From the NCBI RefSeq assembly GCF_988243305.1, contig NZ_OZ547136.1: a DNA stretch of 64,000 nt. One strand, given 5' to 3'. The position numbers and the translations under genes were made by a program. Every line of letters begins with the position of its first letter. Within the stretch, counting starts at the first letter, position 1. The notes below the pieces were generated by a model. It saw nothing but the letters and a program-made list of their open reading frames with translations, was not told the origin of the DNA and ran no database searches. This document shows, in pieces, positions 5,898 to 40,794 of the stretch.

Positions 5898-5965
5898 GCG
5901 TCTTAAAACTCCTGTGGTGCACAACTCTCGGCTTTAGAGGGCACAGAGAATAGCACGGAAAGAGA

Positions 5966-38763: not shown

Positions 38764-39093
38764 TTATGTTGGCGTTTTCTATTCAGTATAGAAGTGGGAG
38801 CGACTGGGCGAGATGCGGAAGTTCTGGAATGTTTTTTTTTGATGATGGTGACTGAAGCAAATTGGCTACATTTTGCAATATGACAAGTTATGGCAGTGCG
38901 GACTGGTGGCGAAGAATTTTGACGATTGAGGCATGCAGAAAAAACGGGTTCAGCTTCAGTTGATCAAATGAGGATTGAGAAGTCCGAAACAGGACTTACT
39001 GTATAAATAAACAGCTATTTTGCTAAGGAAGGGTAAGATAACGGCGGGTGCCTGAAGCTTTCCGGTTTCAGGTTTACTCTGAGGTCTGGAAAG

Positions 39094-39282
39094 ATGAAGC
39101 CCCAGGACGATATTTCTATCAACCCTGGGGCTGCCACTCCAAACCCAAACAATTTGGATGGTAGTCCCTTCTTCGCATGGAGGCAATATAAACATGCTGA
39201 CGAAATATGCCCTTGCGGCAGTCATAGTGCTGTGTTTGACGGTGCTGGGATTTACGCTTCTGGTCGGAGACTCGCTGTGTGA
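39094..39282 (+). CDS. Mok-like overlapping reading frame, 62 aa, copy 1
   Basis: ORF starts 100 nt upstream of hok and overlaps it out of frame, as in hok/sok systems. Confidence 0.5.
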
Positions 39283-39346
39283 GTTTACGGTGAAGGAACG
39301 TAATATTGAGTTTAAGGCTGTTCTCGCTTACGAACCGAAGAAGTAG
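39194..39346 (+). CDS. hokE: Hok-family membrane toxin, 50 aa, copy 1
   Basis: [50 protein letters not shown] is a typical Hok sequence; GGAGG RBS 11 nt upstream. Confidence 0.85.
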
Positions 39347-39597
39347 CCGTTGTGCGGGGAGTAATCCCCGCATATCCGGTTGTCAGGTCAGGGTGGTAAG
39401 GCACCTGCTTTACACTTTCGCCCGCGGTCAGCAATGGCTGCGGGCGATGTCGTTTTAAGGGCAATGATCAGTTTTGCCAACAGAAGTCCGAAACAGGATT
39501 CACTGTATAAATAAACAGCTATTTTGCTGAGGAAGGGTAAGATAACGGCGGGTGCCTGAAGCTTTCCGGTTTCAGGTTAACTCTGAGGTCTGGAAAG

Positions 39598-39786
39598 ATG
39601 AAGCCCCAGGACGATATTTCTATCAACCCTGGGGCTACCTACCCAAACCTGAACAATTTGGATGGTAGTCCCTTCTTCGCATGGAGGCAATATAAACATG
39701 CTGACGAAATATGCCCTTGTGGCAGTCATAGTGCTGTGTTTAACGGTGCTGGGATTTACGCTTCTGGTCGGAGACTCGCTGTGTGA
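39598..39786 (+). CDS. Mok-like overlapping reading frame, 62 aa, copy 2
   Basis: Paralog of copy-1 mok with a few substitutions (AATPNPN to ATYPNLN, D49N). Confidence 0.5.
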
Positions 39787-39850
39787 GTTTACGGTGAAGG
39801 AACGTAATATTGAGTTTAAGGCTGTTCTCGCTTACGAACCGAAGAAGTAG
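39698..39850 (+). CDS. hokE: Hok-family membrane toxin, 50 aa, copy 2
   Basis: Same as copy 1 with one substitution (A8V); intact ORF and RBS. Confidence 0.85.
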
Positions 39851-39999
39851 CCGTTGTGCGGGGAGTAATCCCTTAAGTTAGCGCTTATGGGAGTAATCCC
39901 CGCATATCCGGTTGTCAGGTCAGGGTGGTAAGGCACCTGCTTTACACTTTCGCCCGCAGTCAGCATTGGCTGCGGGCGAATCGCTCCGGGTATTGTCAA

Positions 40000-40620
40000 T
40001 TAATCGTGTTGGCACAGCGTTATGACTATCTTTTCTTTTATCTGCCAGTGCACAGCAAACTGCTCATCCTCTAGTCGAATGATGATCTGCTGTTTATTCA
40101 AGCTAATTATCTGATAATCCAGAAATCCTGCATCAGTTTGTCTCTCCGATGCCTTAAATGCGCTCTCTTTGGCGGAAAATGCCAGTGTTAGCGCCAGAGA
40201 AAAGGTTAAACCGCATTCTGCGAGTCGCTCGTGTTCTGCTGGTGTAATAATGTTGTCTGTCAATTCTCTTGCGGTTTGTACAGAGAAAATCTCTTCGATA
40301 TCAATGCCAATCGGTTGACGAGATACCACGGCTAATGCCGTAGTCCCGCAGTGGCTAATACTGCCGTATACCTCCGCAGGCCACACAGGTTGGCGTAGCT
40401 CGCCGATAGCGGGCACATATTTATAGCCATATTCCCGCAAGGCATAAACAGCAGCGATTCGTCCAGCTAAATGCTCTGTTTTACGTTTACGTCCAGCGTG
40501 TTGCAGTTGTGCGTAGTGTGGCAGCCAGAGTAAATCCTGCTCGCGAAAACTCGCCGGATCGAACTTAACAAAATGCAGCGTATTTCCGGCAAAGGGGAGG
40601 GCGGTATGCGTAGTTTTCAT
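40000..40620 (-). CDS. entD: 4'-phosphopantetheinyl transferase for enterobactin synthesis, 206 aa
   Basis: PPTase-like sequence; start re-picked at MKTTHTALPFAG (an ATG 9 nt upstream, MVDMKTT, is an alternative). Confidence 0.8.
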   Translation of the reverse strand: MKTTHTALPFAGNTLHFVKFDPASFREQDLLWLPHYAQLQHAGRKRKTEHLAGRIAAVYALREYGYKYVPAIGELRQPVWPAEVYGSISHCGTTALAVVSRQPIGIDIEEIFSVQTARELTDNIITPAEHERLAECGLTFSLALTLAFSAKESAFKASERQTDAGFLDYQIISLNKQQIIIRLEDEQFAVHWQIKEKIVITLCQHD

Positions 40621-40657: not shown

Positions 40658-40755
40658 GCCTGATGCGCTACGCTTATCAGGCCTACGTGGTCCTGCAATA
40701 TATTGAATTGGCAAGATTTTTGTAGGCCGGATAAGGCGTTCACGCCGCATCCGGC
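40658..40755. repeat. REP/BIME palindromic units between entD and fepA
   Basis: gcctgatgcgctacgcttatcaggcctac and gtaggccggataaggcgttcacgccgcatccggc match the REP consensus. Confidence 0.7.
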
Positions 40756-40794
40756 ATGAACTACGCGCACTTTGTCAACAATCTGACGTTAGCA

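Follow-up and report, generated by a model that had tools for sequence, protein, structure and literature searches.

The ybdK-entD interval of the window (the whole 64-kb stretch of DNA that was analysed) is occupied by two tandem hokE/sok units. The surrounding gene order, nfsB-ybdF-ybdJ-ybdK-hokE-hokE-entD-fepA, was taken from the RefSeq record of E. coli Z1323HEC0462, which names both toxin genes hokE and to which the window is 99.95% identical over 6.3 kb (two mismatches and one gap). Direct repeats, alignment and Rfam matches delimit unit 1, proximal to ybdK, at 38980-39447 and unit 2, proximal to entD, at 39484-39979, both on the plus strand and 96-98% identical to each other. Each codes an intact Hok/Gef protein of 50 amino acids, recognized by translation and by the Pfam family HOK_GEF (PF01848; cut-off 22 bits): the ORF of unit 1 (39194-39346, +; WP_000956455-type) scores 32.1 bits and that of unit 2 (39698-39850, +; WP_000956465-type), which carries the substitution A8V relative to unit 1, scores 34 bits. 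Full-length matches to sok (Rfam RF01794; gathering score 59) are found at 39046-39202 (82.4 bits) and 39550-39706 (84.1 bits). The start of each hok ORF is overlapped, in a different frame, by a putative mok-like ORF of 62 amino acids (39094-39282 and 39598-39786).

The units also feature the RNA elements expected to close the hok messenger on itself. In unit 1 a tac-like 5′ element, GCGGGUGCCU (39044-39053, +), is predicted to pair with an fbi-like 3′ element, AGGCACCUGC (39399-39408, +; predicted fold), which is followed by a terminator-like, G+C-rich terminal hairpin (39418-39447, +) identified by terminator scan and folding. Their counterparts in unit 2 are a tac-like element at 39548-39557 (+; predicted fold), an fbi-like element at 39931-39940 (+), still part of the ORF's own transcript and predicted to pair with 39548-39557 with probabilities of 0.93-1.0, and a terminal G+C-rich hairpin at 39950-39979 (+; inverted repeat and fold). 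The tac/fbi mechanism is summarised in PMC9841398.

A linker of ~34-36 bp, TGTCGTTTTAAGGGCAATGATCAGTTTTGCCAAC (39448-39483), joins the two units. Since it is absent upstream of unit 1 and downstream of unit 2, a simple, recent head-to-tail duplication of the present flanks does not account for the array. The number of hokE copies between ybdK and entD ranges from 1 to 3 in the genomes compared (including 200164, 2012C-4221 and K_EC180). Antisense ORFs over the hok leader (38956-39225 and 39577-39729, both on the minus strand) appear in related records as PGAP "hypothetical protein" or pseudogenes, most probably gene calls made in error where the hok/sok RNAs are encoded. The entD-fepA spacer (40679-40785) matches Rfam ES036 (CssrF) with 42.2 bits, above the gathering score, as well as naRNA4 and Ysr224 below threshold, and these matches probably correspond to a REP-type repeat.

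Alignment of the two units reveals a single 28-bp gap just past the hok stop codon, across which the unit-to-unit spacing increases from 504 to 532 bp. The segment 39858-39903 of unit 2 reads gcggggagtaatcccttaagttagcgcttatgggagtaatccccgc, while its unit 1 counterpart (39354-39371, +) reads gcggggagtaatccccgc and forms the intact post-stop hairpin GCGGGGA-GTAA-TCCCCGC (local fold −18.5 kcal/mol, z = −4.8). The additional 28 bp of unit 2 are located at the tip of this hairpin. An earlier note on this DNA had described a 28-bp insertion with a repeated decamer that parts the hairpin arms, and had placed it in the 3′ region of the hok messenger; the strings are found where it reported them, and the insertion does fall in the 3′ region, with the hok ORF on one side and the fold-back element fbi on the other.

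The inserted region can be parsed in three segments, in the order GGAGTAATCC, CTTAAGTTAGCGCTTATG, GGAGTAATCC. The central one (39872-39889; 18 bp) matches exactly the ends of the 1,339-bp insertion sequence IS186/IS421. It corresponds to the outermost 18 of the 23 bp of the terminal inverted repeat of this element (CATAAGCGCTAACTTAAGGGTTG on the other strand), and all 18 bases are identical to the IS ends found in CFSAN051542, in the ET450 plasmid and in strains 300033 and 200164. This match is unique in the window, the 17-mer between the decamers being exact, and 0.02 such matches with up to two mismatches are expected per window by chance. With both terminal repeats identical, the remnant does not tell in which orientation the element had inserted. 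The flanking decamers (39862-39871 and 39890-39899, both +) are the same 10 bp that flank complete IS186 copies at this position, and represent the left and right copies of its target-site duplication. Neither a transposase ORF nor a second IS end is present at the scar, where 1,321 of the 1,339 bp are missing, and it was accordingly classified as a remnant rather than as an IS copy.

IS186 recognizes the target 5′-GGGG(N6/N7)CCCC-3′, a motif deduced from 59 insertions in a study that also reported the use of either orientation (Lee et al. 2016, PMC5009759). The sequence GGGG-AGTAAT-CCCC of unit 1 (39356-39369) fits this motif and represents an unoccupied IS186 target. The same site is found occupied in other strains. 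The K-12-like strain CFSAN051542 carries at this position a 1,339-bp element in plus orientation, annotated "IS4-like element IS421 family transposase", flanked by the same 10-bp duplication (junctions ...GTGCGG-GGAGTAATCC-CATAAGCG... and ...CGCTTATG-GGAGTAATCC-CCGCATATCC...). Strain 300033 has a full IS186 at the identical position in minus orientation, with the same duplication, and in strain 200164 two units of one hokE array hold IS186 in opposite orientations, again with this duplication. Removal in silico of the 1,321 bp between the CCC repeats of the full element generates a string that is present verbatim in the window. Taken together, the 28 bp are very probably the footprint of an insertion of IS186 (IS421, IS4 family) that was later almost wholly deleted. 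An IS excision footprint is a known kind of feature, found here at a known IS186 hotspot within a known toxin-antitoxin locus; our literature search found no published description of this scar.

The frequency of occupied and scarred sites was assessed in 5,426 complete E. coli genomes. The IS186 right junction at hokE is present in ~1,420 of them, including MG1655, C600, ATCC 8739 and strain C, and the left junction, counted independently of orientation, in 1,477. Another count of the left junction, at ≥80% coverage, gave 1,725 records (1,919 genomes) and disagrees with both figures. About one in four E. coli genomes, among them K-12, thus has a full IS186 at the hokE site. A 301-nt query covering 39700-40000 is matched with ≥80% coverage in ~3,600 of the 5,426 genomes, a number that includes genomes with an empty site. 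The scar is rare: its exact 63-bp junction occurs in two of the 5,426 genomes (Z1323HEC0462 and 2012C-4221), not at the frequency of the neutral common polymorphism that the earlier note had considered as an argument against its own reading. A palindromic two-end scar (CATAAGCGCTAACTTAAGTTAGCGCTTATG) was not confirmed in any genome: there were 14 apparent full-coverage matches, each composed of two joined pieces spanning 548 bp, and the one inspected individually consists of two IS186 junctions ~0.5 kb apart due to IS186 copies in adjacent hok units. Inserts of 1-30 bp between two copies of the duplication were not found at the hokE site, either in metagenome contigs, where the power is low as the empty site itself occurs on only 13, or in GTDB species representatives. 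Solo IS186 ends detected in the latter with the pattern BCCCTTAAGTTAGCGCTTATG belong to IS-like elements of unrelated environmental metagenome-assembled genomes (MAGs) and are not E. coli-type scars.

These searches yielded additional observations on IS186 and its ends. The IS186-terminus 20-mer CCCTTAAGTTAGCGCTTATG is found exactly at the ends of IS-like sequences in GTDB MAG contigs (L024-L035) assigned to Bryobacterales/Acidobacteria, Syntrophaceae, WOR-3, Desulfobacteraceae and Caldilineaceae (for example on the minus strand of contig L033 at ~127-147 and of L034 at ~630-650), and in several contigs G/C-rich stretches, for instance GGGGTCCGCCCC, come after it. This distribution reflects either conservation of IS186-type termini between distant phyla or the presence of contaminant or chimeric DNA in the contigs. 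On the minus strand of MAG contig L031 (~5924-5965) two 17-nt IS186-type ends face each other head to head with a 2-nt spacer (TTAAGTTAGCGCTTATG-AA-CATAAGCGCTAACTTAA), an arrangement that might represent an end-to-end junction, a copy in tandem or a scar with two ends. E. coli CFSAN061770 has a second chromosomal hok array between cysH and cas3, next to its CRISPR-Cas I-E system, with IS421/IS186 after each of two hok units; IS186 and a hok/sok system were mentioned at this cysH-cas3 CRISPR-Cas I-E locus (PMC3903273). In the E. coli ET450 plasmid, IS421 (1187-2534) adjoins the plasmid hokD. Its right flank (GGAGTAATCCCCGC) equals the hokE site and its left flank (GGGGATCTCTCC) is mismatched; as the two flanks are unlike, they do not represent one target duplication, and the sequence may have arisen through recombination of IS copies or be chimeric.

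The comparison of empty, occupied and scarred sites shows the first of the events that generated the scar: IS186 inserted in the GGGG-AGTAAT-CCCC hairpin after the hokE stop, duplicating GGAGTAATCC. A full element at this point parts the hok ORF from fbi and from the terminator. Subsequently, 1,321 of the 1,339 bp of the element were lost between two CCC direct repeats, a step whose outcome is visible in the window. One deletion endpoint is the CCC at the boundary between the left duplication and the IS (CCCaTAAG) and the other is a CCC found 18 bp from the right end (CCCtTAAG). The endpoint contexts, AGTAATCCC followed by ATAAG and GTTCAACCC followed by TTAAG, have CCC in common and match at seven of eight bases when the context is included. 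The endpoints adjoin or fall inside the 23-bp perfect inverted repeats, and both copies of the target duplication were kept. Slipped-strand "nearly precise" excision is known for Tn10 and Tn5 in such a configuration of repeats. The most likely route would be a slipped-strand or microhomology deletion of this type, independent of transposase and aided by the 23-bp inverted repeats; we infer the mechanism solely from the endpoint sequences, whose microhomology is short (three bases).

Alternatively, the transposase itself might have cleaved the left end together with a pseudo-end within the right inverted repeat, the break being then resealed by end joining. The pseudo-end CCCTTAAG does resemble the true end with its flank (CCCATAAG), the similarity of the endpoint contexts (7/8 bases) is compatible with such a misrecognition, and cut-and-paste transposition of the IS4 family is established knowledge from IS10 and IS50. 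However, E. coli lacks efficient end joining and a canonical excision would leave no IS base at the site. Neither a mirror-image scar, in which the left end would be kept, nor any other variant scar was found in the 5,426 genomes, and IS excision is very rare in mutation-accumulation lines (one of 857 events; Lee et al. 2016, PMC5009759). Transposase cleavage followed by resealing is the weaker alternative to slipped-strand deletion and we consider it unlikely.

The consequences of the scar for the hokE messenger were investigated by modelling transcripts that begin with GCGGGUGCCU, the tac-like 5′ end, and finish with the terminal hairpin, for unit 1, for unit 2 and for unit 2 without the scar. 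The 10-bp pairing between the tac-like and fbi-like ends is predicted in all three models with a probability of 0.93-1.0 (0.94-1.0 in unit 1), and the global predicted fold is alike in the three. In unit 2 the 18 bp and the second copy of the duplication, placed at the hairpin apex, would extend the post-stop hairpin to an enlarged structure (39855-39906, +), predicted both locally (−30.7 kcal/mol, z = −6.3) and in the full-length fold. It preserves the outer stem of 10 bp and gains an inner one (CCCU.UAAGU / GCUUA.UGGG), built from the duplicated CCC/GGG and from AAGU/GCUU of the inverted-repeat remnant, so that the local stability changes from −18.5 to −30.7 kcal/mol. When the models are truncated before fbi, 317 of the 325 upstream positions keep their pairing partner with or without the scar. 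The scar is thus predicted to merely lengthen the post-stop hairpin, leaving unaffected the control structures of the toxin mRNA, and the unit 2 transcript would be continuous (ORF, hairpin, fbi and terminator) and fold like that of an unscarred unit. A kinetic or processing effect on the hokE mRNA may nevertheless exist.

These predictions bear on a reading in line with the earlier note, in which a local insertion/duplication, a slippage product made of ggagtaatcc and some filler, would break up a regulatory hairpin and bring the two hokE copies under different control. The decamer is directly repeated, the arms of the hairpin are parted in the DNA and the site lies between the ORF and fbi, in agreement with this reading. 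Against it, the supposed filler is an exact IS186 terminus and the repeated decamer is the IS186 target-site duplication of ~1,450 genomes. The description as insertion/duplication therefore holds for the repeat of the decamer but not for a simple local duplication, the 28 bp being composed of an 18-bp remnant of the IS186 repeat and a 10-bp target-site duplication. Different regulation of the two copies finds no support in the models, in which the outer stem still forms, tac and fbi pair with a probability of ~1.0, and both full-length and truncated folds are the same outside the hairpin apex. The earlier note had itself named unaffected fold-back and processing elements as an observation that would speak against it, and this is what is found at the level of prediction. 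We regard a local duplication with regulatory effect as very unlikely.

In this region the two complete genomes that carry the scar, Z1323HEC0462 and 2012C-4221, do not belong to one clone, as there is a difference of ~2% between their flanks and they have two and three hokE units, respectively. The scar is found in the entD-proximal unit in both. The scar-bearing units are mosaics that differ from each other at 20 of 495 positions. The 5′ part of unit 2 of the window is similar to unit 2 of 2012C-4221 and its 3′ part to unit 3 of the same strain, as well as to units with an empty site in pig ETEC strains, EC556 among them. In EC556 and K_EC180, the nearest by 3′ haplotype, the site is empty and there is no full IS186. 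Such mosaic sequences are consistent with unequal crossing-over or gene conversion between units, and the presence of the scar in the two genomes may reflect one event spread by recombination or two identical events. No two-unit array with a full IS186 in the entD-proximal unit on the scar haplotype, which would represent the intermediate, was identified. When a query that includes 36 nt from the left end of IS186 is compared with the Z1323HEC0462 chromosome, the hokE flank is the sole match; this chromosome appears therefore to be devoid of any IS186 whose left end is intact, and the scar to be a fossil in a lineage from which the element has been lost.

IS elements are classic sites of assembly errors, and a collapsed IS186 copy could in principle create a spurious junction. 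The identical 63-bp junction is found, however, in two "complete genome" assemblies of strains from South Korea and the USA whose flanks and hokE copy numbers differ as described above, while the window itself differs from Z1323HEC0462 by the two mismatches and the gap in 6.3 kb. Furthermore, if overlapping ends had collapsed through the palindrome CTTAAG, the junction would be a different one, a 30-bp palindrome, which was not seen. Because the junction is carried by two independent complete assemblies and by the window itself, an artefact is highly improbable. The idea that a MITE-like non-autonomous IS186 derivative transposed as such into the hairpin can be dismissed with near certainty, since despite the target-site duplication and the IS186 end sequence there is one copy in the window and none detected at other sites, the second inverted repeat is absent, and a lone partial end (18/23 bp) is no transposition substrate.

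Textbooks explain the status of several K-12 hok loci, which are counted as dead, by the presence of IS186 just behind their reading frames. The hokE scar indicates that an insertion of IS186 can be reversed almost cleanly in nature. Relative to the full element, the scar is predicted to rejoin the hok ORF to fbi and the terminator in a continuous transcript. Loss of the element would also leave two half-sites, GGGG-N6-CCCT and TGGG-N6-CCCC, each one base off the IS186 motif. We can only tentatively propose, as a rather doubtful extension, that the scar is a natural revertant in which a functional hokE is re-coupled to its fbi and terminator and has become a poorer IS186 target, partly immune to re-insertion. 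If true, the scar would record a conflict, still under way, of IS186 with the conserved hairpin that follows the stop codon in hok loci, and the "inactivation" of chromosomal hok genes by IS186 would be reversible. The scar allele provides a natural construct to ask whether restored continuity between the ORF and fbi restores hokE regulation. The 28-bp signature can serve to recognize sites formerly occupied by IS186 where the intact element is gone and, for annotation purposes, small "insertions" with 10-bp repeats at GGGG-N6-CCCC are worth checking against IS186 ends.

The closest known arrangement is hokE::IS186 of E. coli K-12, which shares with the scar the locus (ybdK-hokE-entD), the insertion point, the 10-bp duplication GGAGTAATCC and the IS terminus. 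The scar differs by retaining only 18 bp of the element, so that ORF, fbi and terminator are contiguous again, and by its location in a two-unit array instead of the single unit of K-12. In the analogous hokC/gef::IS186, the literature regards the downstream element as disrupting fbi and the processing of the mRNA (PMC3562002), and the chromosomal hok loci tested so far were reported to be inactive (bioRxiv 10.1101/2025.08.07.668861). Among the IS186 hotspots at GGGG(N6/N7)CCCC, for example in menC and fimA (PMC5009759), the motif is matched exactly at hokE and both orientations are likewise used; those cases are insertions, whereas the hokE scar is the aftermath of a loss. The hokE units have in common with hok/sok of plasmid R1, a system controlled by tac/fbi fold-back and 3′ processing, the Hok/Gef ORF, the mok-like ORF, the sok match, the 5′-3′ complementarity and the hairpin between the stop codon and fbi, but they are chromosomal and tandemly repeated. 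Finally, the nearly precise excision of Tn10 and Tn5 also leaves a remnant of IS ends between intact target duplications, with endpoints in short direct repeats beside long inverted repeats. The scar at hokE differs from these cases in the element involved (IS186), in a direct repeat of only 3 bp (7/8 bases with its context) and in a remnant that derives from one end only.
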